Shown one piece after another: positions 12,560 through 40,548 of a DNA stretch of 64,000 bases. A program made the translations under genes and the position numbers. The notes under the pieces are model-generated. The model made no database searches. It was not told where the DNA came from and saw only the letters and a program-made list of their open reading frames with translations. The DNA is taken from assembly GCA_021787475.1 (NCBI GenBank), contig JAJYLW010000009.1, positions 7,722 to 71,721 on the forward strand, in the 5' to 3' direction. Every line of letters begins with the position of its first letter. The first letter of the stretch is position 1. Origin of the DNA: Actinomycetes bacterium (GTDB lineage: Bacteria; Actinomycetota; Thermoleophilia; BMS3ABIN01).

Positions 12560-12626
12560 GACTGACGGAAAACAGAGGCGCCTATGGCGCCTCTGTTTTC
12601 CTTGATACAGGCGTGTGCCTGACGTT

Positions 12627-14570
12627 TTACTGCCGTTTCACCTCTTTGGCGCAGCTGGGGCAGAACCTGGCGTCCGCCGGCAGCGGATGACCGCAGTGAA
12701 CGCAGAACCTGGGCATTTCCTCAGCCTCCCCTTCAGGCTGTGCGCCAGTTTCTGCTGCCGCAGCCTCGGCCGGCTCGGGAACCGCCGCCAGGTTTGCCTT
12801 GCTCACTTCCTCCGTTGGCGCCTCAACTTCCTTGGGCGCAACCGATCCGGCGATGAAGGCCGGCTTCCCTTCCGCAGGCGCATCTGGCGCCCGGGTTTCC
12901 GAAGAACCACCGGCAGAAGGGCCGGCTTCGGGTATCGGCCCGGTTCCCTCGCCTGTCATTCCCGGAGCAGCGGCCGCTTCCGGAACCACCTTGAACGGCC
13001 CTGAAGGAGCCGGCCTGGCTTCGGTCTGCGGCTCGGCCTTGGCTGTGACGCCGCCTGCCGGAGCAACAGGGCCTGACTGCGATGAACCCGCGTTCGGAGC
13101 CGTGGGCGCATGCGTTGCCGCCGTTGCTCCGGTGCCGCCTCCCAGTCTCGACTTGACCAGGAAGAATCCGCTGGCGCCGATGGTGCCTAGGGCGCACAGG
13201 CCCAGCGCGATCATCAGGTACATCGGATACGGGAACACAGGCTCGTCCTGGCCGGCGCTGATCTTGGCCGTCGTGTCCGAGATCATGCCGGCAACGTACG
13301 GGAAGGCCGGATTAGCGTCGGCGATCTGCTTCAGCTTGTCCTTGGCGGCGCTGTAGTGATGCAGCGCATACAGGTCAACCGCCTCGTGGTACGTCTTGGT
13401 GAGTTCCCCTTGGGTCGGCTTGACGTTGGTCTGTGAGAGGAACTCGTTGATAACGGTGGTGGGGACGGCGAAGTTAAATCCCTGCACCGCCTGGGGAGTG
13501 CCGCCGGGACTGTTTGCGGCATCATTTACACTGCCAAAGGTAGTGATGCCAATTACCTGGCCCTGGCTATTGAACAGCGGCCCGCCGCTGTTGCCGTTCG
13601 AGATGGCGGCGTCTGTCTGCAGCACTTCCCAGCCCTCCGGCATTGTCTTGCGGCCGCTGATGCTGCCCACCGTCAGTGACGGTTTTACGTTTTCATCAGA
13701 TTGCTTGAGCGCGGGATTGAACGTTGCCGCCGCCGGATAGCCCAGGGCGATAGCCTGCTGGCCGTCCTGGACGGCCTTGTCATCGCCAAACGAGACCGTC
13801 GGCAGGTTGGTGGCATCCACCTTGAGTACGGCGACGTCCTTGCCGGGGATGGCGTCGCCGGCCTTGATTATCTGCAACGGCGTCCCTTTCTGCTCCGTCG
13901 TGCCACCCGGAGCCGCCACGCCCATGTACATCACGCTTTGCGAGGAAGGATTCTGCACGGTCATGTTCCGGGCATAGACGGTGGCGATCGCCGCCGAGAG
14001 TTTCTGCGTCTGATCGCTGGTGAGCGTCACGTTGTAGCCTTCAGAGTTGAGACCCTGGGTGAAGCCGGTGACAAATTTATTGACAAGGTCGCTTAATCCT
14101 ACCTGGGCCAGCATCTGCTTCAGTTCAGCGTCAGTCTTTTTGACCACGTGTGCATTTGTGACCATGTATCCATCAGGAGTGACAATGATGCCGGAACCGG
14201 ACTCGGCCGCCTGTACTGGAACGGACGTGCTGCCTGCGCCGGGAACAATATAGTCCTGCGGATTGGTGAGGACTTCGTTGATGGCTGCCTGCACTGCATC
14301 ATTCTCGTTGGCGATGGCGCCGGTCTGCACCATCGGCAGCAGCTTGTTGACCAGCTTCTGCTCGTCAAGGGCCAGATTGGGGACGGTAATGTTTGCTTTC
14401 CAGGTTGTCTCGATGTACGTCGTCCCCGGTTTGTTGTAATCAGCCACCTTGGGAGGATCCATTGCCGTGGTGCGCCCGGCGCTGTGCAGCCCCAGCAAAA
14501 GCAGCACGGCAAATGCCAGCGTAAACGCAACCGCCGCTCCTCTGATTGACAACATCACCCATTTCTTCAT
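12627..14570 (-). CDS. membrane-anchored trypsin-like serine protease with C-terminal cytoplasmic zinc ribbon
   Basis: Signal-anchor, S1/HtrA-like catalytic motif GNSGGPLFNSQGQVIGITTFG, a second TM helix, a Pro/Ala/Glu-rich disordered tail and a terminal CVHCGHP...CPSC zinc ribbon. Confidence 0.7.
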   Translation of the reverse strand: MKKWVMLSIRGAAVAFTLAFAVLLLLGLHSAGRTTAMDPPKVADYNKPGTTYIETTWKANITVPNLALDEQKLVNKLLPMVQTGAIANENDAVQAAINEVLTNPQDYIVPGAGSTSVPVQAAESGSGIIVTPDGYMVTNAHVVKKTDAELKQMLAQVGLSDLVNKFVTGFTQGLNSEGYNVTLTSDQTQKLSAAIATVYARNMTVQNPSSQSVMYMGVAAPGGTTEQKGTPLQIIKAGDAIPGKDVAVLKVDATNLPTVSFGDDKAVQDGQQAIALGYPAAATFNPALKQSDENVKPSLTVGSISGRKTMPEGWEVLQTDAAISNGNSGGPLFNSQGQVIGITTFGSVNDAANSPGGTPQAVQGFNFAVPTTVINEFLSQTNVKPTQGELTKTYHEAVDLYALHHYSAAKDKLKQIADANPAFPYVAGMISDTTAKISAGQDEPVFPYPMYLMIALGLCALGTIGASGFFLVKSRLGGGTGATAATHAPTAPNAGSSQSGPVAPAGGVTAKAEPQTEARPAPSGPFKVVPEAAAAPGMTGEGTGPIPEAGPSAGGSSETRAPDAPAEGKPAFIAGSVAPKEVEAPTEEVSKANLAAVPEPAEAAAAETGAQPEGEAEEMPRFCVHCGHPLPADARFCPSCAKEVKRQ

Positions 14571-25469: not shown

Positions 25470-25827
25470 TGGGGGCGACCTGGTTTCGACGGGGTCTATC
25501 TGGACGGGAGCAGCAAGCCGAGCTTCCGGCGGGCTCGTAAAACTGCCGGAAACCTAAAGTAAACGCAGACAATAATCTAGCGTTAGCCGCTTAATTTAAG
25601 CGGCTCATCGCCCCCGGCTGACCGCGGCCGGGACCAGCGGTGTCAGATAGCGGCCTATGCCGCCGCAGCCGCCTCTCGCCGCGGCGTGCGAAGCTTTAGA
25701 GAGGCTGGCAGACCGGATCCGGTCTTCGCGGAGCCGGCGCGCGAGACTTAAAAAGCGAAGACTAAGCTTGTAGCGGCTCCCCTTCGGGTGGCTTCGGACG
25801 CGGGTTCGATTCCCGCCGCCTCCACCA
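25470..25827 (+). ncRNA. ssrA: transfer-messenger RNA (tmRNA)
   Basis: 5' GGGGGCGACCUGGUUUCGACGGGG with a G3:U wobble acceptor. 3' T-arm/acceptor GGACGCGGGTTCGATTCCCGCCGCCTCCACCA. Internal tag reading frame GCA GAC AAT AAT CTA GCG TTA GCC GCT TAA, giving (A)DNNLALAA. A TATAAT -10 lies at 25436-25441. Confidence 0.95.
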
Positions 25828-25836
25828 TCATTCGCA

Positions 25837-25850
25837 CCTCTGAAAATGCC
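25837..25850. repeat. target-site duplication, left copy (CCTCTGAAAATGCC)
   Basis: 14 bp identical to 40535-40548, each directly abutting a terminus of the inverted repeats. Confidence 0.8.
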
Positions 25851-26307
25851 GGGGTATAGGGATGTGCAAAGCGTGGACCACCTGTGACAAATGATACTAT
25901 GTGTGCTGAACCCCTGCTCTTGCGAGGTCTTTTGATTCACCAGTAGGTCTATGTTATGGTGGCGGATGGTTGACTTGCGGCTTGCTAGTTGATACATAAA
26001 GATGTAAGTGCTAGTTTGGTAAGTCAGTGGGGTGAGTGGTGTTCTGGTCGCAACCGCAGGATATCGGGACTGGTTCAACTTCGCCTGCCACCAAGCAAGG
26101 CCCGCAGGTAGCCCGGTCTCTTCGGGTGCAGAAGCTTCGAGAAGTAGGGATTAGGTTGGCCGGGATAGCATTGGGCTGGTAGGCAATGCGTAGGACCAGT
26201 CTTGACCCCATTGGAGCCACCCCGTTCATGTCCAGGACGTTGCAGCTAGTCTTGTTTGACATCATTACATTTTGTAAGGTGATTGGAGCTACCCGCTCAC
26301 GACCAGG
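25851..26307. repeat. left terminal inverted repeat (TIR-L)
   Basis: Inner 115 bp (26193-26307) are about 98% identical to the reverse complement of 40135-40250. The terminal 40 bp match the reverse complement of 40495-40534. The middle part is more diverged and carries indels. Confidence 0.8.
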
Positions 26308-26355
26308 ATCCAAACCGCAATTTACTGTCCCAGGAAACCCGACCACATCTTTCCT

Positions 26356-26754
26356 CTATTTATTGAGGATCAAACAATAATCTTCCCACTTAAGATCCAG
26401 AAGAAATTGATATTTCTCTTCTAATTCTCTTGTACGTCCTTGAAAATATATTTCCCTAATATCATTGTCTGATAAATTCCTGAAATCGTTACAAATCGAC
26501 TGGTAATAAAGCTTCGATATTTCGTATTTATTGTCAGCTGGTTGAACAAAAAGAAGATTTTTAAAATCTAATATTAAAATCCAATAATCTATGAATCTTT
26601 CACCCGTTGCTTGGCTTAAAACAGAGATCAAAAGGTCTTTAATAAGACGTGACCAAGTGCATTTCCCCACAATGCAAACAACATAATGACCGACGGGTAT
26701 TTCATCCCTTGTGGCAATTTGAAGTTCACCATATTTTAAGCCCCGTGATTTCAA
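26356..26754 (-). CDS. hypothetical protein (AT-rich cargo)
   Basis: 132-aa ORF with low GC relative to its surroundings. Confidence 0.35.
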   Translation of the reverse strand: MKSRGLKYGELQIATRDEIPVGHYVVCIVGKCTWSRLIKDLLISVLSQATGERFIDYWILILDFKNLLFVQPADNKYEISKLYYQSICNDFRNLSDNDIREIYFQGRTRELEEKYQFLLDLKWEDYCLILNK

Positions 26755-26757
26755 CAG

Positions 26758-27426
26758 CTAAGATAAAGAAATCAAGCGCTGAACTAAAATAGGAGTGATA
26801 AGTCCCTCGATGAGACCTGCAATTATAAAAAGGAAAATTATTAAAGGAAATACTTTCAGGCTATGGTTATAAATTTCTTTTATCTTCTCTTTGAATGCTA
26901 CGTTATTCCTTTTCATCAAAATTGTCGGCGCTCTAAGGGTTAAACTTGTTGTCAGTATAATTGCTGGTACTTCAAATAATAGATGAGGCAAAGCTAATGG
27001 AAACAGATAACCATGAACACCAACACCCGAAATTAATCCCCAATTTACCCCCAGATCAAAGCCAATAATACTTGCTTTAAATAAACCCACTAAGGCAGTA
27101 ATTGGAATTGGTGAAGTCAACACTAAGAAAAAACTTGTTCCGACATTCTTAGAAATCGTCATATATGTTTGGGGCTGTTTATCCCAAGAATCATAAAAGC
27201 TACTAAGAATATTTCTGGTATCTTCCCTGGTTTGGTTTTGTTTATTATCAATATCATATGGAATATTGCCGGGCGTGTTAATTAAATTAATTGCTTCTTT
27301 TTGATTATTAATATTACTTATTCTGGCTTGAAGCTGACCGCTTAAGTATCCAAGAAATATGGTAACGAAAAATAAGATCCCAGCAATTATGATTAATATT
27401 CTATCTTGTTTGATAGCATGAATCAT
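26758..27426 (-). CDS. SpoIIM/DUF95-like integral membrane protein
   Basis: 222 aa with multiple TM helices. The C-terminal GVHGYLFPLALPHLLFEVPAIILT pattern resembles the DUF95/SpoIIM family. Confidence 0.4.
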   Translation of the reverse strand: MIHAIKQDRILIIIAGILFFVTIFLGYLSGQLQARISNINNQKEAINLINTPGNIPYDIDNKQNQTREDTRNILSSFYDSWDKQPQTYMTISKNVGTSFFLVLTSPIPITALVGLFKASIIGFDLGVNWGLISGVGVHGYLFPLALPHLLFEVPAIILTTSLTLRAPTILMKRNNVAFKEKIKEIYNHSLKVFPLIIFLFIIAGLIEGLITPILVQRLISLS

Positions 27427-27442
27427 TGTTAACTTCTAATTA

Positions 27443-27709
27443 TTACGAGAGTGAACTCAATAAATATTCTATCTGACTAGGGAGATCTCTTAATTCTTGC
27501 TGTACGGCTTTTTTATCCGCGTCAGGCAAAGCGCCGTAAGTATAATCATATATATCTTTTCCAATCTTATAAGAATTTTGAAGAGCATCCGGATTTGGGT
27601 AACATTGTTCTTCTTGTTCGGCGCATGCGGCCCTGTAATAATTTTCCTCCGGGAGGCATAACGGCGATTCTTCGCCTTCATTCGTCGGATTTTGACTCTG
27701 TTGATTCAC
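27443..27709 (-). CDS. small acidic Cys-containing hypothetical protein
   Basis: 88-aa ORF co-oriented with the neighbouring AT-rich genes. Confidence 0.3.
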   Translation of the reverse strand: MNQQSQNPTNEGEESPLCLPEENYYRAACAEQEEQCYPNPDALQNSYKIGKDIYDYTYGALPDADKKAVQQELRDLPSQIEYLLSSLS

Positions 27710-27814
27710 AGACCACTTCTAAGTCTATGATTCTACGAACTTAAGAACTAATAAAACCTGGCAAGCCATGGACTCAGAACATGAATGTGGTGGTGCTTAA
27801 ACTAGCATTCCCGG

Positions 27815-30778
27815 TCAGCCGATGACAACTGCGGTAAGGGCCTTCCGCAGCTTGTTCACTGTGGCTGCCCCAGGCTCAACTTTACCTGCCAGAAAACGCA
27901 GCACGGTACTGTGTGAAAGTCCTGCCGCCCGGGCCACTCTCCGCACTCCGTGCTTCCTGCAGACAATCGCCACCCGCTCTTGTAGCTCAGTGAGACTGCC
28001 GCCCGCTGCCCCGTACCTGATCTGCGCCTCTGGGTCCTCGCCGGTCAGTGAGCGTTCCTCCCAGCGATTGGCTTCCTTACCAATATATTGAATGCCGTTT
28101 ACGTCCGGCACCCGAATATGACGGCGGCGAAGCAAACCCGCCTCTGTGTAATCGCCGCCAATAAACTTCGTCTCCGGGTGCAGGTGGTAACGGACAAGAG
28201 CCTGTAGGTAAGTCTTGAGAAGCTCAGGAGTGACAGTCTCGCCAGTGTCCCGGTCAAAGCAATGCCTCACTGCAACTGCCGGGTCGGGATCAAAAGGTGA
28301 GACAGCCCGGGGCGATTGGGCCGTTTGCTGCCGCTTGTGCTTGCCGCCTCGGGAATCGAGTTCTACACAATTAAGCTGGGCGGCACTCCTGGCCTGATAG
28401 GCATTAAGAAAACCGAACGGGCGCACCTGCTGAGCATATGGCTTGCCCTTGTTGAAAGTGTCAAACCAGTGAAGAAGCCTCGGGCAGGTGGCCGCATAAC
28501 GGCTAAGCGCTACCGCGTCAAAGCCTGGCAGGCAGTCCAATTCGACTATCTGAAGGTGACCGGCAAGCGCTGCTTGGACAATTAGATACCAGAGATCATA
28601 CTGCCAGCGCTGAGTGCCAATCTCTAAGAGCGCCAGCCGGGGGGCTGGGACCCGGTCCGGCGCTTTCGCTTCCGGGTAGGGCGGCTGCAGGTGACCGAGG
28701 CCGTGGGCCGATGCCTTGCGCAGGACGGGCCTGCCGTCCGCGCCGATGTTAAAGAGAGCGTACCGCTTATCAGAGACTGCAAAGCAGTAAAGCGCTTCCG
28801 GCAGCCGGCCATCGAGGCTATAGTTCGCATCTTCCAGCTTGAACAGCTCGTCACCTGAGGTGTAGGGGTTAAGCTGTTCAAACCAGCCGCGTACGCGCTT
28901 AGTCCGCTTGTAAAACTCCTCCTCAGGCATACCCTGCGGGCAGGCCAGGGCCATGCTGTCGGTATCGCAAAAAGCCCAGCCGAGGCCCTCCTGCTCGGCC
29001 AAGGCCTCAACGACTCCCAGCATCAGCCGCGCCGCTCCCGTGGTCAGGGTGGCGAGCAATGGGTGAAAGTAACGGCCCGGCTCCTCAATGCTCGCCAGCT
29101 TCGCGGTACGCGGAGTCTCATCGCCGCCAAAGTAGACCTGTTCTTTCTGGCGGGCATAATCTTGCACATTCAGCTCGACGAAGATACCGTAGCAGCTGGA
29201 GTTGGCAACGATCTTCATCGCCAGCTGTTCGCTCGCCAGTCGTTCACGTTCTGATTCATTATTGCAGCTGCGCATCTGCTGCTTGACGCTGGAGCGCAGC
29301 TCAATCAATTTGAGGTAAAAATCATCCTTAGCGGGATCGATGCGGTAGTCAGGATTTCCCAAGATGTCAATCAGCTTTAGGCCCGGCTGCTGGCCCCGGG
29401 GGGTAAAGGCCAGCGCCCTGAGAATCTTCGGCGTCTTCCCAGTAAGCAGCTTGGAAACAAAAACGTCGGCCAGGGTGAACCAGAGCGGCTCTTTACTGGT
29501 CAGGTAATTAAGGCCGATCGAGTAGGCGGGGCTGCTATCGTCGTAGGCGCTACGCACCGGCAGGAGGTCAGCGTCTGCTTCGACCCGGGCGAGCACAGCC
29601 AGCTTGGCCCACGTCTCGGGGCGGGCCAGGTCGCTGAGCTTAAGGTTATCAACTATTGCTTGGGTCTCGGCGGTTGCTTCTCTCCAGTGGGCGCCGGTGG
29701 CGGTGACAAAGCGCCAGAGCCCCATGAGAACCGAGACAGTCGGGTACATCGAGAGAAAGTCGCAGTAGGCAACCTGAGAGACAACCCGCCTGAGGTGCAC
29801 TTCGGAGCGGCCGCCAAAGTAGCTTGCCATGATGATGCCTATAAGTTCGGGTGGTACGTCGGGCTGCAACTCGCGCCATGGTTTGACCCCCATCTCGCGC
29901 AGGCAGGCCTTGCCAATCGACGCCTCGCTCAGGATTGCCGAGACCGGTGTGGCGGCAAGCTTGAAACCCTCGTAACGGGCGGCGAGGAGCTGGGAGCACT
30001 CGAAGGTCACCTCAACGTCATTGCGCAGGTAGCCGAGGTAATTAGCGGTTAGCTCCCGGCCGTGTTCGGCCTCGGTCTTTTGATGTTTTGTGCCCAGCAA
30101 ACGGGCCAGTGAGGCCAGCGAATGCGAGCTGCCGGTCAGGGCAGCCGCCAGCGAGCGCACATCTGAAAAGAAGCCGCGCCTGGGGGGCCGCCGGTGGCGA
30201 CGCCGTCTCATGGAGCGGGCACTCCGCTGGCCGCCTGGGGCGGCGAAGTCGATCAGAGATGCGGTCCGCGACAGATGCTTGATGCGAACAGGCGGCCAGT
30301 TCTCGCTTAATGTCAGGGAGAAACCACCGCCCATCTTTTTACCCTTGGCTGGTCCATGCTTTATTGCCAGCCGGGAGAGGTCAAAAGGGAGATTGAAGCC
30401 GATAATCAGCGCATTTAACAGGTATGCCTGGCGGTAAAATATCGCCTCAATGAACTCGCTGACTGTTCTTAGCTTGAGGTCGTGGCGGCGGGCATAGCCC
30501 AGCAGGCGCCGGCGCTCTTTACTATTCAAGGCTTTTGGGTCAAAAAAGAGACCTTCCTCAACTAGTTCTTTCTTTTTGCGCAACTGGTAGCAACCTACCC
30601 GCAGCCGCTGCTCGGCGGTAGTCGTTGTCTCAGTATCGAATATGAGTGAGTAATCAGAAGGACCCAAGGGGGCGCTTCCCTCGTTGTTTGTAGTGGTCAT
30701 TTGACTGCCATTTCCGGTTTGTGGCACTGCGTAGGCACGCAGGGCGATTGGCTGCTCTATAGGTGCTGGCACTTTCAT
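27815..30778 (-). CDS. polB: family B DNA polymerase (casposon PolB) with 3'-5' exonuclease domain and C-terminal HTH
   Basis: Exo I IFDTETT, Exo II NLPFD, Exo III YLRNDVEV. Pol motif A DFLSMYPT, motif B KIVANSSCYG, motif C FCDTDSMA. C-terminal HTH (GLSHSTVLRFLAG). The start MKVPAP at 30778 overlaps the HNH gene stop (ATGA). Confidence 0.85.
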   Translation of the reverse strand: MKVPAPIEQPIALRAYAVPQTGNGSQMTTTNNEGSAPLGPSDYSLIFDTETTTTAEQRLRVGCYQLRKKKELVEEGLFFDPKALNSKERRRLLGYARRHDLKLRTVSEFIEAIFYRQAYLLNALIIGFNLPFDLSRLAIKHGPAKGKKMGGGFSLTLSENWPPVRIKHLSRTASLIDFAAPGGQRSARSMRRRRHRRPPRRGFFSDVRSLAAALTGSSHSLASLARLLGTKHQKTEAEHGRELTANYLGYLRNDVEVTFECSQLLAARYEGFKLAATPVSAILSEASIGKACLREMGVKPWRELQPDVPPELIGIIMASYFGGRSEVHLRRVVSQVAYCDFLSMYPTVSVLMGLWRFVTATGAHWREATAETQAIVDNLKLSDLARPETWAKLAVLARVEADADLLPVRSAYDDSSPAYSIGLNYLTSKEPLWFTLADVFVSKLLTGKTPKILRALAFTPRGQQPGLKLIDILGNPDYRIDPAKDDFYLKLIELRSSVKQQMRSCNNESERERLASEQLAMKIVANSSCYGIFVELNVQDYARQKEQVYFGGDETPRTAKLASIEEPGRYFHPLLATLTTGAARLMLGVVEALAEQEGLGWAFCDTDSMALACPQGMPEEEFYKRTKRVRGWFEQLNPYTSGDELFKLEDANYSLDGRLPEALYCFAVSDKRYALFNIGADGRPVLRKASAHGLGHLQPPYPEAKAPDRVPAPRLALLEIGTQRWQYDLWYLIVQAALAGHLQIVELDCLPGFDAVALSRYAATCPRLLHWFDTFNKGKPYAQQVRPFGFLNAYQARSAAQLNCVELDSRGGKHKRQQTAQSPRAVSPFDPDPAVAVRHCFDRDTGETVTPELLKTYLQALVRYHLHPETKFIGGDYTEAGLLRRRHIRVPDVNGIQYIGKEANRWEERSLTGEDPEAQIRYGAAGGSLTELQERVAIVCRKHGVRRVARAAGLSHSTVLRFLAGKVEPGAATVNKLRKALTAVVIG

Positions 30779-31287
30779 AGTTCGGCCCCCCGGCCAGTGA
30801 GCATGTTGGGAAGGCCCAGCGCCTCCCACCAGCGCGGCCCGTGCCGCTTGCGCATGCACTTTTCGAGTGCCTCAAGCCAGGCAATCACCGGAGCAAGAAG
30901 ACGCTCGGCGATCATCACCAGCCAGTCGCGGGCGCTGCGCAGGTTGGCGGCGGCCCGGAGCGCTGGACTACCCTCGGGGTTTCGGCGCGTCTCTTCGGGC
31001 CAGTCAACCTTGTAGTCATCCATAACGCGGTGGTCATTCGCGGCCATCGTAACCTCCATCTTTGGATTGTTTTTACGGCCGGCGGGGTGGTGGCGCTCTA
31101 CAGTGGAGCGCCCCTGCTGAGCGCACCTGTGCTCATAGCACTTGATATTGAGGTACGCGCCGGTCAGAGCCCGCCAATCACTCTCGCCGCAGCCGGGCAC
31201 ACTGCAGTGTGGACTCCGGGTGCCGAGGCGCTCGAAGGCATCTTCGGCGCGGGCCTCGGCGTTTGAGGGAAGTAACCTCTTTGTCAT
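30775..31287 (-). CDS. HNH endonuclease
   Basis: Cys-rich C..C ... ERHHPAGRKNNP ... pattern typical of HNH nucleases. Translationally coupled to polB. Confidence 0.6.
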   Translation of the reverse strand: MTKRLLPSNAEARAEDAFERLGTRSPHCSVPGCGESDWRALTGAYLNIKCYEHRCAQQGRSTVERHHPAGRKNNPKMEVTMAANDHRVMDDYKVDWPEETRRNPEGSPALRAAANLRSARDWLVMIAERLLAPVIAWLEALEKCMRKRHGPRWWEALGLPNMLTGRGAEL

Positions 31288-31306
31288 CGCTATCTCCTTT
31301 TTGTTG

Positions 31307-31888
31307 TTAAGCTACGATTTTGTAGACGTCCTGGAAGGATTCTGTCTGGGTTTCGGTAAGCCGGTAAAGGACGTTTTCGCGTGTCTCAAAAGGGTGGAAC
31401 TGGCCGCCGGCGTCCATCACCCCCTGGCCGGCGAACTCTTTCAGGGGAGCGGGGTCGTTACTGTCGAGAAACTGTCCCACTGCCGCCATATAGCGGCCTG
31501 CTAGTTGGGCCGAGTCGTAGTCGGGCAGAATGACGATCAGTTCACGCCCACGCGAGTAGATAAGCATCTGGCGCCGGCGAGCATCGGGGCCGACCTTCCA
31601 GCGGGCTTGCTCCTTGCGCCCTACGCCGGTGCGCACCAGGTAAGAGCGCAGTCGCTCAGGGGCGACGTGCAGGCGCCTGGCGGCGGCTGAAAGCGACTCG
31701 TCCTCGCGCACCTGCTTAAGCCCTTCTTCAAGCTCAGGGTCCCACGGGCGCGCTTTGATGATCTGGGACGTGTAGGGTTCGTGATGACGAGGATGACCGC
31801 GGGCCTGGGAGCGCGAGAGTCCCTTCGCTTGCCCGCGTTTGATCCGGCGGGCATACTCGCCTTTGTAGTCGCGCTTGCGGCGGGCCAT
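31307..31888 (-). CDS. hypothetical basic protein
   Basis: 193 aa with an Arg/Lys-rich N-terminus, in the polB operon. Confidence 0.4.
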   Translation of the reverse strand: MARRKRDYKGEYARRIKRGQAKGLSRSQARGHPRHHEPYTSQIIKARPWDPELEEGLKQVREDESLSAAARRLHVAPERLRSYLVRTGVGRKEQARWKVGPDARRRQMLIYSRGRELIVILPDYDSAQLAGRYMAAVGQFLDSNDPAPLKEFAGQGVMDAGGQFHPFETRENVLYRLTETQTESFQDVYKIVA

Positions 31889-31942
31889 CAGGACTCACCG
31901 CCCGCACCTTGCGTTGACAAGCACTGACCATTGCGATAGTAG

Positions 31943-32776
31943 TTACTCAAGACGAACCTCCCGCTTATAGGTGGTGGAGTTTGTCGATTGGGCCTGTGCG
32001 GAGGTGGTGCTCCGCACGGGCCGTTTTTTATTGCTCGGGCTGCCTCGCTGGCTGGCCTGCCCGCCGCGCTTGGGATGAGGCTGTGGTTGCCGTGAAAGTC
32101 GCCAGCGCCAGCTAGGATCGAGCACGTAGGCGTAGCGGTGTTTGGGCGGGCTTTTGCGCGCGACGATGGCCAAACCGGTGCGCCTAAGGTGAGCGACCGA
32201 GCCCGTGCCGAACCTGCCGGAAGCACTGCGGGGATGGATGCGAACGCCGTTAAGCTCGAAGTAGCGCTCCGGCTCGGTGGCACCGAGGTAAAGCCAGCCC
32301 GCGGCCTGGTAGATTGTCCCCACATGACCGGCGGCCGGGTCGGCGAAGCTCACGAGCAGCTTGTAGCTGCCCTCTCGGCGCAGCTTGCGCAGGATCAGTG
32401 AGAGCACCCGGCTTTCGTTATTGGGCGGCAGACCGTCGGCCATCCAGAAGCGGGCCAGGGTAGCGACGTCGGCGGGACGTGCCCCGGCCAGCAGGTGGTG
32501 GGCCTGGCGGGCACCGGCCGTGAAGACGCAGGCGCCCACCAGCTCGGAGCCGAGGTTCACGGTGTAGCAGCAGCGAACGACACCCGGCATTGAGTGCAGG
32601 TAGTGACACTTAACGACGAGGCTGCGCACGGCTGCGGCAGGCACGCGCTTAACCCGCAGGCTGCGTAATATGGAGCGGCCGGTCGGGACTCGAACCCGCG
32701 CCTCCTCGCTGGTGGGGCGAGGCGTCCTGCCATTAGACGACGGCCGCAGGGGATGCGCTGGGGGTGCAGGCTTCAC
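31943..32776 (-). CDS. putative GNAT-fold Mom-like DNA-modification protein (tentative)
   Basis: Motif pattern HYLHSMPG...ELVGACVF...LVSFADPAAGHVGTIYQAAGWLYLG recalls Mom-like acyltransferases. This is from memory and no search was run. Confidence 0.3.
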   Translation of the reverse strand: MKPAPPAHPLRPSSNGRTPRPTSEEARVRVPTGRSILRSLRVKRVPAAAVRSLVVKCHYLHSMPGVVRCCYTVNLGSELVGACVFTAGARQAHHLLAGARPADVATLARFWMADGLPPNNESRVLSLILRKLRREGSYKLLVSFADPAAGHVGTIYQAAGWLYLGATEPERYFELNGVRIHPRSASGRFGTGSVAHLRRTGLAIVARKSPPKHRYAYVLDPSWRWRLSRQPQPHPKRGGQASQRGSPSNKKRPVRSTTSAQAQSTNSTTYKREVRLE

Positions 32777-33618
32777 GCCTCGGTCACCTCACAGCCGAGT
32801 TCTTCGGCCACGGCCAAAACGTTGCGCGATCTGGTGGCAAGACGCTCTGCCAGCTCGGCGGCTTCTTTGCCTCCGAACACAGCTCTTAAGGCCTCGGCTG
32901 CAGTGGAAGCGGTTTCCCAGCCCTCGAAGCTCTCGCCGTCATCCAGGGCTACGGCAAGGCGCTTAAAGTAGTGCGCCAGGCGGCGCTGCTCGCGGCGCTC
33001 TTTGGCCGTAAACAAACGGTCAACAAGGCTCTCCTGCTCGGCGGGTAGCTCACCGCGCGGGCGAGCAGACGGCGGCGTAAAGGCAACACCGCTGCGACTG
33101 ACGCGCTGCTCGGTTACCGGGATTGTTGCCTTGACTTCCAGTTCTTGCCGCAAACCTGCCACGGTCGTCGGCGAGAGGGCCGTTAGCCGGGCAACCTCCA
33201 GATTGGAGACGGCGGCGTTGTCCTTAAGCAGGCGCTCGGCTTCGCCGCGCCGATCGGCGAGCGTCAGCGGCCGGCCGTGAACGGTATTGAGGGCAAAGGC
33301 CAAAGCTCGCAGGTCGTCGCCTGCGGGTAGTTCGTGAACCGCGACAGGGACTTTTTCGAGGCTGAGGTTTTGCGCGGCTGCGTACCGGTGGAAGCCATCG
33401 ACAAGCACATAACCGCCACGCTTAACGACGATAAGAGGCGGCCAAGCCTTGGGGTTTTCCTCAAGGGCTTGGACGTGACCATAGTCCAGTCCTGCGATGC
33501 GTGGCTGGAGGGTGGGATCGACGAGAATGCGCCCCAGGGGCAGGTCAATGGTAGTGGCAATCTGTGTCTGCATATCATTCACACCTCTTCTGCAATTGGG
33601 TTGTATTTCAATTTTCAT
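32773..33618 (-). CDS. ParB-like nuclease (ParB/Srx N-terminal domain) protein
   Basis: The N-terminal domain carries the ParB/sulfiredoxin catalytic-loop signature (LIVVKRGGYVLVDGFHRYAAA). First gene of the minus-strand operon ending with polB. Confidence 0.55.
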   Translation of the reverse strand: MKIEIQPNCRRGVNDMQTQIATTIDLPLGRILVDPTLQPRIAGLDYGHVQALEENPKAWPPLIVVKRGGYVLVDGFHRYAAAQNLSLEKVPVAVHELPAGDDLRALAFALNTVHGRPLTLADRRGEAERLLKDNAAVSNLEVARLTALSPTTVAGLRQELEVKATIPVTEQRVSRSGVAFTPPSARPRGELPAEQESLVDRLFTAKERREQRRLAHYFKRLAVALDDGESFEGWETASTAAEALRAVFGGKEAAELAERLATRSRNVLAVAEELGCEVTEA

Positions 33619-33705
33619 GGCTATGTTTTGCCATACCGGCGAGCGAATGCCTAGAGTCCCGAAGAAGTCGATACGGTTCGCGATAGGGTGTAAAATGAAT
33701 CAATA

Positions 33706-34896
33706 ATGAATGAATACGTGACAGATGAGGATGGTCATACAAAAAGGGAGCTGCTTGAACTGGGCCGCCAGCTTGGGGCCAGCGAGAAGCAGTTCGACCG
33801 TTGGCGTCGCGCACAGCTCCTACCGCCCCCAATCAGTCATCGCTCGCTTGGCCGCGGCAAGGGGTCCGTGTCGATCTATCCGCCTGGCACGTCAAAGCAA
33901 CTACGTCGCCTGTGCGAGCTTCACTGCGCGCCGTCGCTAATCAAGAAGGAGCGGCGTCTCCTGTTCCTTGCCTGGAAGCTCTGGTGGGAGGGTTACGATA
34001 TTCCGGCTTTGCGCGTGCGCGAGTTTCTTGCCAAGCACGTCGTGAACAGCTTCGACAGCGACGTAGAAGCAGCCCGCGCGATGAGCCCCGAGCAACGCCA
34101 GGTGACCGTTCACGAGTTGGCAACTAAACCGCTCGGCCGGCATCCGGGGCCGCTTGGCAAGGCACGCGGCCATTTACGGGGCAACATGCGCGACTTCCTC
34201 GCACTCCTCTTCACGATGGTCGATGGGAACGTAATCACCAGCGACCCAGAGAGCTTGCGGTTGCTGGAAAAGGCGAGCGGCTTGGAACGGGGACGCACAG
34301 ATACCTGGTGTGGTCAGCCTTTGCTCACCGATGAGAAGAATCACATCCCAGACACGATCGTTGCTGCTCTAATGCCCCTGCTGGATGGATCGTTGACACA
34401 ACGTGTCGAGCAGATGAGCGATGCCGAGCTTTGCGAGGCACGCCAAACCGCGCAGCGATGGTGGAATGGTGTCACCGTGATGGCTCGCTTTGGCCGAGAC
34501 GCGAGGGGCAAGGGCGGGTTTGGTCTGGGCGACTTTCTCTACGCGCCTAGCAATCCTCGCGAACAGGCAGCTTGGTGCCTCATGTTCGGCATGTTAAACG
34601 AAGCCGCGACCAACAACAGCGCGGTGGCGGACATCTTTCGCACCTTCTTCACCGCGCTTGAGACTTTTGCCGCGAACTATCCATTGGTGGAGGCGGGCCG
34701 CGAGGTCGAGCCGTTCCGTGAACTGCTCAGCCCTGCGCGAATCGAACAGGTGACTGCCGATCCCGACAAGATGCCTGAACATCTCCGCGAAATTCGCCGG
34801 ACAAGGTTCCACAAGCCGGATGCAGCAGAGGCATTTACAAGAGCGATAGTGGCAGCCCAGAAGCGGCTGGATGATAAGACGAAGGGGAACTTCTAA
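33706..34896 (+). CDS. hypothetical protein (possible N-terminal HTH)
   Basis: 396-aa ORF divergent from the ParB-like gene and immediately upstream of cas1. Confidence 0.4.
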   Translation: MNEYVTDEDGHTKRELLELGRQLGASEKQFDRWRRAQLLPPPISHRSLGRGKGSVSIYPPGTSKQLRRLCELHCAPSLIKKERRLLFLAWKLWWEGYDIPALRVREFLAKHVVNSFDSDVEAARAMSPEQRQVTVHELATKPLGRHPGPLGKARGHLRGNMRDFLALLFTMVDGNVITSDPESLRLLEKASGLERGRTDTWCGQPLLTDEKNHIPDTIVAALMPLLDGSLTQRVEQMSDAELCEARQTAQRWWNGVTVMARFGRDARGKGGFGLGDFLYAPSNPREQAAWCLMFGMLNEAATNNSAVADIFRTFFTALETFAANYPLVEAGREVEPFRELLSPARIEQVTADPDKMPEHLREIRRTRFHKPDAAEAFTRAIVAAQKRLDDKTKGNF

Positions 34897-34959
34897 CAAC
34901 AACAAACGCCCCCGCGACGCAGCCACGTCCGGGGGCATGGCACACGGAGGTAAGTCCGC

Positions 34960-36351
34960 ATGCAGAAACATGATACACCCACCGCCGAACGTCTCGACGG
35001 CCGCCGCAGCGTCGAACGCGATCCCCGCATCTGTCAGAACTGCGGTTGTGAGTTTATCCCCAAGCGTCAGACCAAAGGACTCTTCTGTTCTGTCCGTTGC
35101 TACCGCCTCTGGTGGGGTCAAAACGGTCAGGCAGAAGCGTCAAAGAAGGGACTCGCCAAGCTAGAAGAGCTGCAAGCGGCCGGTAAAGACCCCCGTGCCA
35201 GCCAGCAAGCAACCTGGAAGCGGCGCATGGCTTTTCGCAACTCGGCCCTGACGATGGCTGAAGATGAACACGAAACCGACGATTTCCTGTGGGCTGAGCG
35301 AGGCCAATACTGGCAAGAACAGGTTGAACCCAAAGCTAAGAAAGTAATTTCGTACCGTCGCCATGAGCGAAAGCCCCTCATTCTTAACGGCCACGGCCTG
35401 CGAATGCATGTAAATTATGGCAGCCTCGTTGTCAGGCACGGCTTTACACACTACCCGCAGGCAGCGCGTGAGCAGAGGTTCTTTCCAGGCGATCCCAAAC
35501 TTCCGAGCCGCATCATTCTTCTTTCTACAAATGGATCACTCTCGCTTGACGTGGTCCGCTGGCTTTCCGAGCAGCGCGTGTCACTTGTGATGCTGGACTA
35601 CCGGGGGCGGGTTGTAAGCGTCCTTGGTACTGAGACTACGTCTGCCGATCTTGCCCTACGGCGGGCACAGATCGAAGCTATAACCAACGGACGCGGGCTT
35701 GTGCTTGCTCGCTCGCTGATTGAGCAAAAACTTGCGGCTTCGATTACAACCCTGGAGACTCTGCCAGCATCGGAAGTAAAGGAATCCGCGATTAAACGCA
35801 TTACGGCTTTGCTTAAACAGCTACAGGCAAAACCGCCCCAATCAATCGATGACCTGCGTCATCTTGAAGCTTGGGCAGCGATCCCTTATTTTGGTGCATG
35901 GCGGGCGGTTGAGCTTCGTTGGAAGGGCACGGCAAGGAAACCGATCCCTCCAGAATGGAGACGCATTGGCGTGCGCCAAGACTTCCTCCGGCGGACGAAC
36001 CGTCATGCGCACCACCCGGTAAACACATTGCTTAACTATGGCTACGCCTTGCTCGAAAGTCAGGTGCGCATTGCGCTTGCTGAGGTCGGCCTCGATCCAA
36101 CGATCGGCTACCTGCATGTCTGTCAGGCGGGGCGGGATTCTTTTATCTACGATCTTATGGAGCCCTATCGGCCGGTAGTGGACCGCGACGTGCTTGGGTT
36201 TGTCAGGTCGCAGACCTTTACGCCCAGGGACTTCGTGATCGATAAAAAGGGGGTGTGCCGGCTTCATCCAGAGCTGGCACGGCTGGTGGCGTCGCTCGCC
36301 TCTGAAGCGGTCGCTTCGCTGCAGCTTGAGATAGGCACGTTGAGGGAATAG
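34960..36351 (+). CDS. cas1: Cas1-family integrase (casposase) with N-terminal zinc ribbon
   Basis: Cas1 hallmarks HPVNTLLNYGYALLESQVRIALAEVGLDPTIGYLH and RDSFIYDLMEPYRPVVD (catalytic His and Glu). N-terminal CQNCGC...CSVRCY ribbon. SD GGAGG is 9 nt upstream. No cas2 or CRISPR repeats are present. Confidence 0.85.
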   Translation: MQKHDTPTAERLDGRRSVERDPRICQNCGCEFIPKRQTKGLFCSVRCYRLWWGQNGQAEASKKGLAKLEELQAAGKDPRASQQATWKRRMAFRNSALTMAEDEHETDDFLWAERGQYWQEQVEPKAKKVISYRRHERKPLILNGHGLRMHVNYGSLVVRHGFTHYPQAAREQRFFPGDPKLPSRIILLSTNGSLSLDVVRWLSEQRVSLVMLDYRGRVVSVLGTETTSADLALRRAQIEAITNGRGLVLARSLIEQKLAASITTLETLPASEVKESAIKRITALLKQLQAKPPQSIDDLRHLEAWAAIPYFGAWRAVELRWKGTARKPIPPEWRRIGVRQDFLRRTNRHAHHPVNTLLNYGYALLESQVRIALAEVGLDPTIGYLHVCQAGRDSFIYDLMEPYRPVVDRDVLGFVRSQTFTPRDFVIDKKGVCRLHPELARLVASLASEAVASLQLEIGTLRE

Positions 36352-36644
36352 CAGCTTGCAACTCGCACTGCAGCCCAAAGAGATCTGCAATCCTAACTTG
36401 ATGAGTGCTGCTACCGGGTTCAACCCGCGAAAACAAAGAATCGATCTCTTCATCAGGGTTTGAACCGTTGCGCCCGTTTCACAGAGCCGTTAACATATGC
36501 ACAATTAACTGTTTCCTAATGGAATTGGATGATCAGTTAAACAATTTATCAAGAATTGTTTTTAATTGGCAGTGATATATTTGCAGGTAAGCGACTCCCG
36601 GCTCCAATGATGTGAAGTCCGTCAAACTCGAATGAGAGAACTAG

Positions 36645-37202
36645 ATGGCCAAAACAAAAAGAAGACTCTTCCTCGCCAGCGCTACAATTCTTGGCGTGGG
36701 CGTTGGAGCCGTGTTCGGGTCCATCGCCTTCTCCGCCCATCATGATGCTGGGAAAGGTCCAGTCATCTCTGACCAAACCGACATGCTTAGCACTAAAATA
36801 ACGCCAGCGAGCGCCACTGGCTACCTGACAAGTGTGGCAGGTAAATCCTGGGTCATATTCCTGGACCCCGCTGGCGGAACCGTTGACGCCACCAGTTACT
36901 CTAACGCCGACACACTTGGCAACGGTGGAGAGGTAAAGGTGAACGTCGAACATGGAACTGTCTCCGGCTACGGCGAGACAGTTGATTTCATTGGTATCAA
37001 CGTGGCAGGGCTTAATTCCTGCCCATGTCGAGCGCTCACCGACGGATCAAACTTGCAAATCCTGATTCCAACCAAAAACGAACTGCTGGAGACGCTCACT
37101 TTCTACCCGTCAAGCGTCGCCGCTTACAACAGCGCAGTCTCAGGGTTGAACGCGAGAGCTGCACGGGTCAACCAAGACCGCCAGCATGGAGCCAATGATT
37201 AA
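36645..37202 (+). CDS. secreted protein with twin-arginine (Tat) signal
   Basis: KRRLFLASATILGVGVGA N-terminus. 185 aa in the AT-rich segment. Confidence 0.45.
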   Translation: MAKTKRRLFLASATILGVGVGAVFGSIAFSAHHDAGKGPVISDQTDMLSTKITPASATGYLTSVAGKSWVIFLDPAGGTVDATSYSNADTLGNGGEVKVNVEHGTVSGYGETVDFIGINVAGLNSCPCRALTDGSNLQILIPTKNELLETLTFYPSSVAAYNSAVSGLNARAARVNQDRQHGAND

Positions 37203-37346
37203 CAAAATCATTATATGAGGGAGTTTCACTCTCATGATTTCAACCTCTATTCTTTAGTGTCAGCTATTCAGGCTAGAACAAGGTATATACATATCCGGAG
37301 CTAGTTGATATTATCTTTATTCGTTTTTTTTGTCTAGTGCCGGGCG

Positions 37347-38429
37347 GTGATTACATGGATCATCAGTTGCTTGCCGGTTGCCTTCAGCCAATGCATAACT
37401 CTCAACTTATCTTTATTCCTTTCCGCGGAGGTTTCAGCCAAAATGTCTATTTTTGATGGATTTCGTGGAGCGGATTATTGGATTAAGAGGGGCAAGGAAG
37501 CAGCTAACAATTACAACTTCGAAGCTGCAAACGCTTGTTTTAAACGAGTCCTTCAAAAAGAACCCGAAAACCTCTCGGCTTTATTTAAGAGTGCTTCTTG
37601 TCACATTGAGAATAACCAACTTGGGCAAGCGCTTGAGCTAATCGATAAATGCATCAAACTTGATCCCGCGAATGTCCTTTATAAACAGAAGAAAGGTAAG
37701 GTTCTTGAAGCCCAAGAGAACTACGTGGATGCCATCAAATGGTATGAAACAAACATCGCCGAGAAACCAGAAATTTTACAAGTGTGGTGGGGACATAAGG
37801 CTTTATGCCTGAAGAAATCTGGGAAGCAAGCTGAAGCTGTAGAATGGCTAAATGAATGTTTGGACGAGGATCCAAATTTTGACTTTGGATACTATCTTAT
37901 TGCGAATTTCCTTCATGATGAAGAAAAGTATGATGAGGCGGTGAGTTTCTATGAGAGAGCCGTAAGCCTGCATGGTGAAGCCGAGGGACCATCATTGCTC
38001 AATATGGCCGATTGCTTTGTTAATCTTGACAAAGATAATAAGGCAATCTCTTGCTTGGACATCGTTATTGATAAAAATCCTGAGCATCCAGCAGCATGGC
38101 GTGAAAAAGCCTTCATGTTAGAGAAACTTGGACACTCTGAAGAAGCTATCACTTGCTTTGACAAATTAATTTCCCTTACACCGAAATCGGCCAGCTCCGG
38201 CCCAATGGGCATCGGATGGTATCTGTGCCACAAAGGAGATTGCCTTCAGAAACTGGGGCTTCTAAGTCAGGCCCACGATTGCTTTATCGAAGCATCCAGA
38301 ATTGATTTCATTTTAGTCCAGGCTCATATTGCCTCCAAGTCGGAAGCAGAGCTGTCAGAAATAGGTTTTGCACAGACTCCTATAACTAACCTGAGTGAAA
38401 ATCAGTTCAGATACCTGACGGGAAGGTAA
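37347..38429 (+). CDS. TPR-repeat protein
   Basis: Multiple tetratricopeptide repeats. The real start is probably MSIFDGF at about 37443. Confidence 0.6.
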   Translation: MITWIISCLPVAFSQCITLNLSLFLSAEVSAKMSIFDGFRGADYWIKRGKEAANNYNFEAANACFKRVLQKEPENLSALFKSASCHIENNQLGQALELIDKCIKLDPANVLYKQKKGKVLEAQENYVDAIKWYETNIAEKPEILQVWWGHKALCLKKSGKQAEAVEWLNECLDEDPNFDFGYYLIANFLHDEEKYDEAVSFYERAVSLHGEAEGPSLLNMADCFVNLDKDNKAISCLDIVIDKNPEHPAAWREKAFMLEKLGHSEEAITCFDKLISLTPKSASSGPMGIGWYLCHKGDCLQKLGLLSQAHDCFIEASRIDFILVQAHIASKSEAELSEIGFAQTPITNLSENQFRYLTGR

Positions 38430-38631
38430 ACATGGGTCTTTTTAGTAAATTCTTAAACCAACCAAACAGAGACAAATCTGAAGAATTCAACCTTAGAGCA
38501 TGCCAGCTAGAAGGTGATGATAAAATGACATTAGGCCAGGATCATTAGCAAGCGGAGATAACAAAGGTGGCATTAGTCTTTGGGACGTGAAAGATCTTTT
38601 CTAGGGTTGCTACCAATGAGGTCGTGATCAA

Positions 38632-38934
38632 ATGAAAAGGCTGATTTACATTTTGTTAACCTTTTTGCAGCTTCCGGCGGTTTTAATGGTCGGGGCATTA
38701 AATATCGTTGAAGGTCTATTCGTGGCGAGCGGATGTATCGGTTTTTTGGTTATAACCATTACCTTAGGCGTCGTCGGGGGAATTATTTTCGTTTTCGGGA
38801 TGGTTTTGTTGTTTGGCTTGGTCAGAGCGGTCATGATTCCATACGTCAATCTTCTTGAAAGGGTAAAAATGAATCTCAAAAGTAGCCCAAAAATAAAAAA
38901 TATGAATGAGTATCTATTTGAGGATGAGCGGTAA
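38632..38934 (+). CDS. small membrane protein (2 TM)
   Basis: 100-aa hydrophobic ORF. Confidence 0.35.
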   Translation: MKRLIYILLTFLQLPAVLMVGALNIVEGLFVASGCIGFLVITITLGVVGGIIFVFGMVLLFGLVRAVMIPYVNLLERVKMNLKSSPKIKNMNEYLFEDER

Positions 38935-39000
38935 TCAATCATCGTAATCTATGCCGTTTGGCCCAAAATCAGGTTTTCTAAATGGCTTAAAATATTAACC

Positions 39001-39043
39001 TCAGAGTTCGAATACCGTTGCACCGCCCCCATCATCATCAGCT
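39001..39043. repeat. degenerate copy of a tRNA/tmRNA-like 3' end (remnant junction)
   Basis: CTCAGAGTTCGAATACCGTTGCACCGCCCCCATCATCATCAGC is near-identical to 42367-42410. A degenerate R-type TIR terminus (ACAGGTGGTCCACAAGTTGTACATCCCTAT) lies at 39278-39312. Confidence 0.5.
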
Positions 39044-40534: not shown

Positions 40535-40548
40535 CCTCTGAAAATGCC
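40535..40548. repeat. target-site duplication, right copy (CCTCTGAAAATGCC)
   Basis: Identical to 25837-25850. Confidence 0.8.

Follow-up and report, generated by a model that had tools for sequence, protein, structure and literature searches.

A bacterial casposon beside an intact tmRNA gene and the probable use of tRNA-like 3' ends as landmarks for integration

Introduction

Archaeal casposons of family 2 are found at the ends of tRNA genes: AciBoo-C1 lies at tRNA-Pro, and the casposons of Methanosarcina mazei lie at tRNA-Leu (PMC5137440, PMC6614799, PMC6977970). The casposase of Aciduliprofundum boonei needs a leader motif and the dinucleotide where the leader meets the target site duplication (TSD), and most of the TSD is dispensable (PMC6614799). 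The M. mazei enzyme needs the TSD plus 30 bp of tRNA-Leu (PMC6977970). Here we analyze a casposon, called casposon A, that lies directly downstream of ssrA, the gene of transfer-messenger RNA (tmRNA), in DNA of an Actinomycetes bacterium (Thermoleophilia; assembly GCA_021787475.1, contig JAJYLW010000009.1, positions 7,722 to 71,721 of the forward strand). This whole stretch of 64,000 nt is referred to as the window. We favor, with a probability of about 0.75, the reading that the locus is the ssrA-proximal junction of a casposon related to family 3, whose casposase uses the tRNA-like 3' end as a leader-like landmark.

The ssrA gene is a classical integration site of recombinase-based elements (PMC3146451; see also Williams, 2002). 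In Dehalococcoides, genomic islands at ssrA (ssrA-GIs) form tandem arrays bounded by ssrA 3'-end repeats, and some have no integrase of their own (PMC3146451). Literature that names both casposons and tmRNA revealed no link between the two, and among the matches listed for 2020-2026, no title or abstract on casposons dealt with the target sites of bacterial ones. To our knowledge, no bacterial casposase has been studied biochemically. Casposons adjacent to tRNA genes are already known from archaeal family 2, and the result is not surprising in principle. New here are the offset and the landmark gene, that of tmRNA, together with the occurrence of a tRNA-like landmark in a clade of bacterial casposons.

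Results

Casposon A starts 23 nt past the CCA end of an intact ssrA gene

The junctions of casposon A comprise the following features:

25471-25827, + strand: ssrA (tmRNA), intact, with encoded CCA end and tag ADNNLALAA (ARAGORN; Rfam RF00023)
25828-25836, + strand: 9-nt spacer TCATTCGCA from CCA to TSD (read from the sequence; equal spacing at 9 other junctions)
25837-25850, + strand: TSD copy 1, CCTCTGAAAATGCC, the 5' half of the empty-site hairpin
25851-25897, + strand: left terminal inverted repeat, starting with GGGGTATAGGG (47 nt, 89% complementary to 40488-40534)
40488-40534, + strand: right terminal inverted repeat, ending in CCCTATACCCC (repeat search)
40535-40548, + strand: TSD copy 2, CCTCTGAAAATGCC

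ARAGORN and the RF00023 covariance model (183.2 bits, model positions 1-374 of 374) gave identical bounds for ssrA. Both end the gene at the CCA at 25827, upstream of the insertion, and the gene is therefore intact. An earlier note, made from the letters of this DNA, had claimed that the TSD begins 10 nt after the encoded CCA and that the tag frame and the G3:U pair of the tmRNA are preserved. The sequence at 25828-25850 bears this out: the first TSD base is the tenth base past the CCA, the tag reads ADNNLALAA, and the acceptor stem GGGGGCG/CGCCUCC, as read from the sequence and the Rfam alignment, holds the G3:U pair. The 14-bp duplication that it described is also present, with one correction: the exact repeat is CCTCTGAAAATGCC, and the frame one base off, CTCTGAAAATGCCG, is not repeated at the right end.

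The left junction thus reads CCA, TCATTCGCA, CCTCTGAAAATGCC and then GGGGTATAGGGATGTG..., and the right one reads ...CACATCCCTATACCCC, CCTCTGAAAATGCC, TTGAACAAGGCATTTTCC. Exact copies of CCTCTGAAAATGCC occur three times in the window (25837-25850, 40535-40548 and 42411-42424), and all three abut casposon termini (GGGGTATAGGG... at 25851 and 42425; ...CCCTATACCCC ending at 40534). When up to two mismatches were allowed, 0.69 matches were expected by chance and at least three were seen in only 3 of 100 shuffles. Casposon A spans 25851-40534 (14,684 bp), is complete and carries Cas1, PolB, Mom and ParB. It combines a Cas1 gene without cas2 or array, a family-B polymerase and inverted ends with an exact 14-bp TSD, and is apparently an intact bacterial casposon related to family 3.

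The same spacing recurs at ssrA and at tRNA genes

Among related loci (labeled L with a number), a search with Cas1 yielded 600 homologues, and exact-protein look-ups of the closest ones yielded the ssrA cases. In three other lineages, casposons with 62-80% identical Cas1 lie 23-24 nt past the ssrA CCA. Across the ten junctions that we tabulated, the gap from CCA to terminus was 23 or 24 nt (10/10) and the TSD of 14-15 bp always began 9 nt past the encoded CCA. Spacer and TSD sequences were unrelated between groups. The recurrent geometry is CCA, 9 nt, a TSD of 14-15 bp and the terminus GGGGTATAG, at ssrA as well as at tRNA genes and in both orientations. Unrelated TSDs at a constant distance from the CCA point to a ruler that is measured from the tRNA-like 3' end.

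L072, with a Cas1 80% identical to that of the window, has the junction ssrA CCA, TCATTTCCC, TSD ACAGAAAAAATGCC, GGGGTATAGGGATGTGCA, and ACAGAAAAAATGCC is also found at the far end. The tag is identical to that of the window, the response-regulator, fumarase and malic-enzyme genes beside ssrA are shared, and the hosts agree in fumarase (83% amino-acid identity) and tmRNA (93%). Relative to ssrA, the L072 casposon has the opposite orientation. Because the host is related and the orientation is reversed, we regard L072 as an independent insertion at the equivalent site. The L072 element itself (3484-13080, 9.6 kb) has the Cas1, 193-aa and 386-aa genes, is devoid of PolB, Mom and ParB, and holds a fragment of an IS1595-type transposase as well as internal inverted repeats of repeat-protein genes (217 nt, 93%); it is probably a decayed or non-autonomous derivative.

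The second lineage is a metagenome-assembled genome (MAG) of the Thermoleophilia (L070/L071; Cas1 80% identical), where ssrA adjoins smpB and the junction reads CCA, TTGTTCGCA, CCTCTGAGAATGCC, GGGGTATAGGGATAGGCA. The third (L193-L196) has a Cas1 that is 70% identical and present on 22 contigs, and the tag AENRTLALAA; its junction reads CCA, CACTGCCAT, TSD TTTGATACCGTTCTT, GGGGTATAGGG, and the 15-mer TTTGATACCGTTCTT is found again at the other end. At equal offset, casposons also adjoin tRNA-Ile (L003), tRNA-Ala (L019) and tRNA-Val (L016 and L292), with TSDs unrelated to that of the window (YTTCGACAACGTTT, CCTTGCGCCCCGCC, TCTCTCCTCACCGGG), and the L202 casposon adjoins a tRNA-like 3' fragment. 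These data support the earlier proposal of a tRNA-like gene as landmark. The idea of surveying for other insertions at the ssrA-proximal 14-mer fared differently in its two parts: the site is indeed reused, but across the wider clade it is the distance to the CCA that is conserved and not the 14-mer.

Some contexts were uninformative, as the casposon ends lie beyond the available sequence (L199-L201, L288/L289 and L002), and L203 gave only a doubtful 'permuted tmRNA' call. When species-representative genomes were surveyed with a profile of Cas1, the 68 loci were for the most part casposons of more distant kinship or lay on short contigs, and ARAGORN found no tmRNA among them. Scanning IMG/VR for CCACCA-N23-24-GGGGTATAG gave 83 matches, all of them chance hits or tRNA-tRNA junctions and none a casposon. 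We also observed casposon termini back to back with a single 14-15-nt unit between them (L012 14725/14741; L193 18801/18816; L290 10681/10696, which equals L291 13661/13676), for example CTATACCCC-AGGGAAATCGTGAC-GGGGTATAG. These are tandem casposons that share one TSD copy in a repeat-insert-repeat layout.

Unoccupied sites carry a terminator-like hairpin

The empty site contains one further feature, which is rebuilt at the distal TSD:

40540-40565, + strand: terminator-like hairpin GAAAATGCCTT-GAAC-AAGGCATTTTC (fold; also kept in empty sites and in junction modules)

Scanning metagenomes for CCGCCTCCACCA-N17-AATGCC identified at least four genuine ssrA 3' ends whose target is unoccupied (L091, L113, L114 and L159) and, among the matches listed, no further occupied site. 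L091 has the tag of the window and a tmRNA that is 89.7% identical. When the casposon and one TSD copy are taken out of the window, the empty site thus reconstructed aligns with all four of them base for base. The four keep the CCA, 9 nt and a YCTCNGAAAATGCC-like 14-mer, in agreement with the expectation of the earlier note that the 14-mer is conserved in relatives with an empty site.

The empty-site 14-mer YCTCNGAAAATGCC forms the 5' arm of the hairpin GAAAATGCCTTG...CAAGGCATTTTTT, and the reconstructed site folds with -15.1 kcal/mol (z = -3.6). Since the 14-mer equals the 5' half of the hairpin, which is whole only at the distal TSD, insertion parts ssrA from this terminator-like structure. 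With a simple terminator scan, no replacement terminator was detected downstream of ssrA within the casposon end. In the window, L070 and L072 alike, the duplicated unit corresponds to the hairpin's 5' half; in L003 and L019 it spans the loop plus the 3' half of a hairpin.

A third target copy belongs to a junction module and borders the stub of an older casposon

Beyond the right end of casposon A lie three more features:

40549-42389, + strand: cassette-like segment with a nucleotidyltransferase and HEPN pair (Pfam) and one open reading frame (ORF)
42390-42424, + strand: third copy of the last 12 nt of ssrA, the 9-nt spacer and the 14-mer, identical to 25816-25850
42425-42505, + strand: stub (L'') left of an older casposon end (91.8% identity with the far terminus of the L072 casposon)

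The third copy is part of an exact 53-nt direct repeat (25816-25868 = 42390-42442) that includes the first 18 nt of the casposon end. The stub is about 80-100 nt long and closer to the far end of the L072 casposon (91.8%) than to the window's own left end (70.6%). The segment between casposon A and the third copy opens with an inverted T-arm-like motif (40586-40606) and closes with 37 nt (42353-42389) that are specific to a repeated module and recur, partly decayed, within casposon A at 38986-39047. These 37 nt had been tried as the decayed T-arm of a second ssrA, a candidate that was rejected as they show no T-stem pairing and recur in many junction modules.

Such junction modules, which turned up widely in the metagenome scan, are about 110 nt long (110-140) and are built as AGAGTTCGAATA[CG]CGTTGCA, CCGCCTCCACCA, 9 nt, the 14-mer, the hairpin and ...AGCCGGCGGGAATCGAACTTT. 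They hold the last 12 nt of ssrA, the hairpin and the inverted T-arm-like motif, and separate cassettes of 1-3 kb in tandem. L078 has an array (5652-10741) of five junctions spaced 991, 949, 1478 and 1527 nt, with SnoaL, RelE/helix-turn-helix, ParE and Lcl cassettes. Two junctions each were found in L102 and L178, and further modules occur in L087, L094, L095, L106, L153, L166, L174, L180 and L190. In their repeat architecture the arrays look integron-like or like miniature tandem ssrA islands, and no recombinase or integrase was seen near them within the DNA examined. In the window, module parts lie at 42353-42424 and 40535-40606, and the segment 40549-42389 is one cassette unit of this kind. 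We interpret the ssrA 3'-end repeat at 42390-42424 (CCGCCTCCACCA plus 23 nt) as the boundary of a small cassette and not of the casposon. The DNA directly past ssrA itself belongs to such a repeated cassette-junction module and may therefore be something other than plain chromosomal flank.

Where the homology of the stub to L072 ends, we observed a perfect 25-bp inverted repeat (42507-42531/42554-42578, loop of 22 nt), about 120 nt before the 3' end of a tRNA-Val gene (42701). The genes of tRNA-Val, tRNA-Glu and tRNA-Lys (42701-43110, - strand) converge on ssrA, so that tRNA-like genes bound the mobile region of 25.8-42.7 kb on both sides, with their 3' ends pointing inward. The +10 position of this tRNA-Val (42701) holds no casposon end.

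Casposon A encodes a Cas1 casposase and a ParB/Mom module with an embedded tRNA-like gene

The main features inside casposon A are:

26121-26308: left arm of a 188-nt subterminal inverted repeat, partner at 40134-40321 (94%)
27815-30859, - strand: family-B DNA polymerase, 1014 aa (Pfam and motifs in the translation)
31943-32776, - strand: Mom-family protein (Pfam PF25680, 9.1e-43)
32674-32747, - strand: tRNA-like gene inside the 5' end of mom (Rfam RF00005, 44.3 bits; gathering score 29)
32773-33618, - strand: protein with ParB N-terminal domain (Pfam PF02195, weak, 0.0015; NCBIfam parB_part, weak)
34960-36351, + strand: casposase, a Cas1 of 463 aa with an N-terminal CxxC...CxxxC zinc ribbon (Pfam Cas_Cas1, 1.7e-48)

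The best match of the Cas1 protein among solved structures was 6opm (1e-30), which we take to be the structure of the M. mazei casposase. Its N-terminal Cys25/28/43/47 are conserved in 34 homologues, and no CRISPR-subtype model of NCBIfam matched at its cut-off. There was no CRISPR or other tandem array at 20-46 kb of the window and no cas2 match among the scanned ORFs of the element (Pfam). Nor did Pfam reveal a serine or tyrosine recombinase domain at 25.8-42.7 kb, where all ORFs of at least 120 aa and three shorter ones were scanned.

The 1014-aa polymerase matched PF00136 with 23.4 bits (cut-off 23) and PF03175 weakly, under the cut-off; searches of PDB and NCBIfam gave no match. Its translation holds the motifs Exo I-III and Pol A/B/C (FDTET, FDLSR, YLRND, DFLSMYP, KIVANSSCYG and CDTDS), and a polymerase gene is found at the equivalent position in L070, L193, L197, L199 and L202. 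Homologues of the Mom protein bear the name 'Mom family adenine methylcarbamoylation protein'. The embedded tRNA-like gene sits in the first ~100 nt of mom, beside the ParB-domain gene. It was seen only in a small-region run with an E-value threshold and was missed by ARAGORN and by the whole-window run at the gathering score. Relatives carry tRNA-like genes at the same place (L070 7938-8014; L193 8245-8321; L288 7740-7816; L292 7677-7753), which ARAGORN calls tRNA-Val or tRNA-Gly. The position of the ParB gene next to mom is conserved in relatives too, as is the gene order PolB, 170 aa, 193 aa, Mom, ParB, ~390 aa and Cas1. Several further conserved proteins of casposon A have no known domains, and low-GC cargo at both ends encodes SpoIIM-like, TPR and NYN proteins.

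The core from PolB to Cas1 (28001-36000) has a GC content of ~60%, equal to that of the host, and the cargo flanks and cassette region (26001-28000 and 37001-43000) have 40-49%. The core looks long resident or ameliorated, the cargo recently acquired. The decayed junction-module copy at 38986-39047 lies amid the low-GC cargo on the right (TPR, NYN), and an extra terminus resembling the right end is found at 39276-39308 (85% to the left terminal inverted repeat, without the last ACCCC). These internal copies suggest that cargo was captured, with the ssrA cassette region or a tandem casposon as its source.

Discussion

How the casposase may find its target

Casposon A and its clade seem to target the ends of tRNA-like genes while leaving these genes undamaged. 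We propose that the casposase, a Cas1 with an N-terminal zinc ribbon, probably reads the T-arm, the acceptor strand and the CCA as a leader-like landmark. The first transesterification would occur ~9-10 bp beyond the CCA and the second after another 14-15 bp, at a distance set by the geometry of the enzyme and with little dependence on the duplicated sequence. Gap repair would then duplicate the 14-mer. By this route ssrA would stay intact and the terminator-like hairpin would re-form only at the far end of the element.

Several points weigh against this proposal. The recognition determinants are deduced from natural insertions only. More distant relatives, namely L004 (TSD TCAGACCGCCGGGG), L197 and the Nitrosomonas elements of NitAL212 type, have no adjoining tRNA-like gene; the ends of L197/L198 are GGGGTAGAGC, in a flank devoid of such a gene. 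For the L070 element, a second end was not located. The 23 nt from CCA to terminus are nearly identical (21/23) between L003 (14373-14395) and L019 (8254-8276), although the tRNAs differ (Ile and Ala) and the MAGs are different, which is not expected if the two chromosomal flanks are independent. The simple terminator scan does not flag the hairpin of the window, because its tail has only 4 T where most relatives have six. Finally, the stub L'' follows a module with only the last 12 nt of ssrA and no real T-arm, so that either the T-arm is dispensable or the stub has been displaced.

The main rival is that the casposase recognizes the 14-mer or its hairpin, a palindromic terminator, and that ssrA is an incidental neighbor. 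This would account for the ssrA cases and for the junction modules: 14-mer and hairpin are kept in all ssrA empty sites and in every module, including those devoid of a T-arm, the older stub sits at just such a module, and the window, L070 and L072 share the hairpin's 5' half as TSD. It does not account for L193 or for the tRNA-adjacent casposons, whose TSDs (TTTGATACCGTTCTT, YTTCGACAACGTTT, CCTTGCGCCCCGCC, TCTCTCCTCACCGGG) are unrelated to the 14-mer and yet keep the distance of 23-24 nt from the CCA. The different part of the hairpin that is duplicated in L003 and L019, and the tolerance of the A. boonei casposase for loss of most of the TSD segment (PMC6614799), also speak against it, and we hold recognition of the 14-mer to be improbable. 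Mere adjacency, with casposons inserting into AT-rich intergenic DNA that happens here to lie near ssrA, would agree with the plain 'intergenic' entries for family 3 casposons (PMC4046053, Table S1; PMC6614799) and with relatives that have no tRNA-like neighbor. It is contradicted by ten junctions with the 23-24-nt offset from an encoded CCA and by three exact 14-mer copies that each abut a casposon terminus, and we give it next to no credence.

Alternatively, the 53-nt repeat could represent attL and attR of a 16.6-kb island of the recombinase type, with the casposon as its cargo. Junction modules do form tandem arrays in relatives (L078, L102, L178), and L072 encodes a large serine recombinase (377-1813) 1.7 kb beyond the far end of its casposon. 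However, an exact 14-bp duplication abuts both termini of casposon A, which recombinase islands do not yield, and the arrangement of CCA, 9 nt and TSD recurs with either orientation at ssrA and likewise next to ordinary tRNA genes. No recombinase was found at 25.8-42.7 kb with Pfam, and the L193 casposon at ssrA seems to be without a distal ssrA 3'-end repeat within 21 kb. Insertion of a cassette by a recombinase probably explains the third copy and not the casposon junctions. The two readings are compatible at that level, and as an account of the whole locus we consider the recombinase island distinctly improbable.

How the locus may have formed and why it matters

With the tRNA-like landmark as the preferred reading, a displacement in three steps would be the simplest history that we infer. 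A casposon of the L072 type would first have occupied the target at ssrA. A cassette with its own ssrA 3' end and target would then have entered at ssrA, displacing the older casposon distally, and casposon A would have entered the regenerated ssrA-proximal target. It is equally possible that the older casposon landed directly in the distal junction. The resulting layout is reminiscent of the tandem ssrA-GIs of Dehalococcoides (PMC3146451).

Taken further, the 3' flank of ssrA might be a shared, self-regenerating landing pad for ruler-type casposons and integron-like cassettes, with the ParB/Mom/tRNA module reflecting exchange with recombinase islands. We regard this combined idea as tentative and, taken as a whole, rather doubtful. 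If true, Cas1 would measure 9 bp from a tRNA-like 'leader' to a unit of 14-15 bp, one half of a terminator palindrome, and duplicate it, which would give bacteria a natural counterpart to the way in which leader and repeat are recognized in CRISPR adaptation. The ~110-nt junctions would each carry a casposon target, and casposons could land at any of them and gain cassettes as cargo. The shared ParB/Mom/embedded-tRNA module would point to exchange of backbones, and Cas1-based and recombinase-based elements would compete for ssrA.

With a recurrent natural target, known from empty and occupied sites and composed of CCA, a 9-nt spacer and a unit of 14-15 bp, site-specific integration by a casposase from bacteria can be tested directly. 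The 'leader plus ruler' logic, which CRISPR adaptation has in common with casposons, would reach bacteria and tmRNA as well. Casposons are added to the elements already known to use ssrA and are found there alongside cassette-like islands, and the flank of this gene is unexpectedly busy, with cassette arrays, casposon relics and a ParB/Mom/embedded-tRNA module as in ssrA islands of the recombinase type. When genomes are annotated, the surroundings of 'intergenic' casposons and of other islands should be searched for tmRNA and tRNA genes that have gone unannotated.

Comparison with known systems

Casposon A resembles the archaeal family 2 casposons in its Cas1 and PolB, its inverted ends, a TSD of 14-15 bp, what is probably an upstream leader within a gene and site-specific integration at a tRNA(-like) 3' end; tandem insertions at one site are also known from family 2. 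In that family, however, the last 4-7 nt of the tRNA gene fall within the TSD, whereas in the window the TSD begins 9 nt past the CCA. The recognized motif lies 8-14 bp upstream of the TSD in family 2, and the T-loop in the window lies ~26-32 bp upstream. Family 2 is archaeal and its casposases have a helix-turn-helix at the C terminus, while casposon A is bacterial, with an N-terminal zinc ribbon in its casposase and a landmark that can be tmRNA. Identity of the window's Cas1 to archaeal matches was 25-32%.

With family 3 (NitAL212-C1, AceAut-C1, HenMar-C1), casposon A shares a bacterial host. It has further traits in common with NitAL212-C1, namely the terminus GGGGTAT (GGGGTATGTTAAC... in NitAL212-C1), a TSD of 14 bp and a Cas1 with a fused zinc-binding domain (PMC4046053 and supplement). 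Ends of the NitAL212 type were recovered with the same Cas1 profile (L022, L026, L027, L033), and the Cas1 proteins of the Nitrosomonas elements are 30-36% identical to that of the window. Published members of family 3 are listed as 'intergenic', without a tRNA or tmRNA landmark (PMC4046053, PMC6614799), and the accessible parts of these sources do not mention for them the ParB/Mom/embedded-tRNA module that casposon A has. Its assignment to family 3 is provisional.

The ssrA-GIs of Dehalococcoides likewise integrate at the 3' end of a tmRNA gene, which is present in single copy and stays intact. Their 'integration module' includes a ParB-domain protein as well as a Mom homologue whose first 150 bp hold a tRNA-like gene (PMC3146451), a trio that the window has as well. 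No named Dehalococcoides was found among the 120 listed homologues of the casposon Mom, and this likeness is taken from the published description. The islands differ in using serine recombinases (DsiB/DsiA), integration at the T-loop and a 20-bp direct repeat (PMC3146451). The window instead has a Cas1 casposase, an insertion 9 nt past the CCA, a 14-bp TSD, inverted ends and PolB, and no recombinase was found.

Tn7 offers an analogy that was drawn for casposons by Krupovic et al., 2014 (PMC4046053). Its TnsD uses the 3' end of the essential gene glmS as a landmark, insertion at attTn7 takes place at a fixed distance downstream, the gene is undamaged and tandem occupancy is possible. Tn7 differs in its unrelated DDE transposase with TnsABCD, a 5-bp TSD and a protein-coding landmark. 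Compared with spacer integration by CRISPR systems, casposons have neither Cas2 nor an array of short spacers, and the inserts measure 10-15 kb. Common to both are an integrase of the Cas1 family, a first cut anchored at the leader, a second cut defined by a ruler, and a partly palindromic unit that is duplicated and of which the leader-proximal copy is reused.

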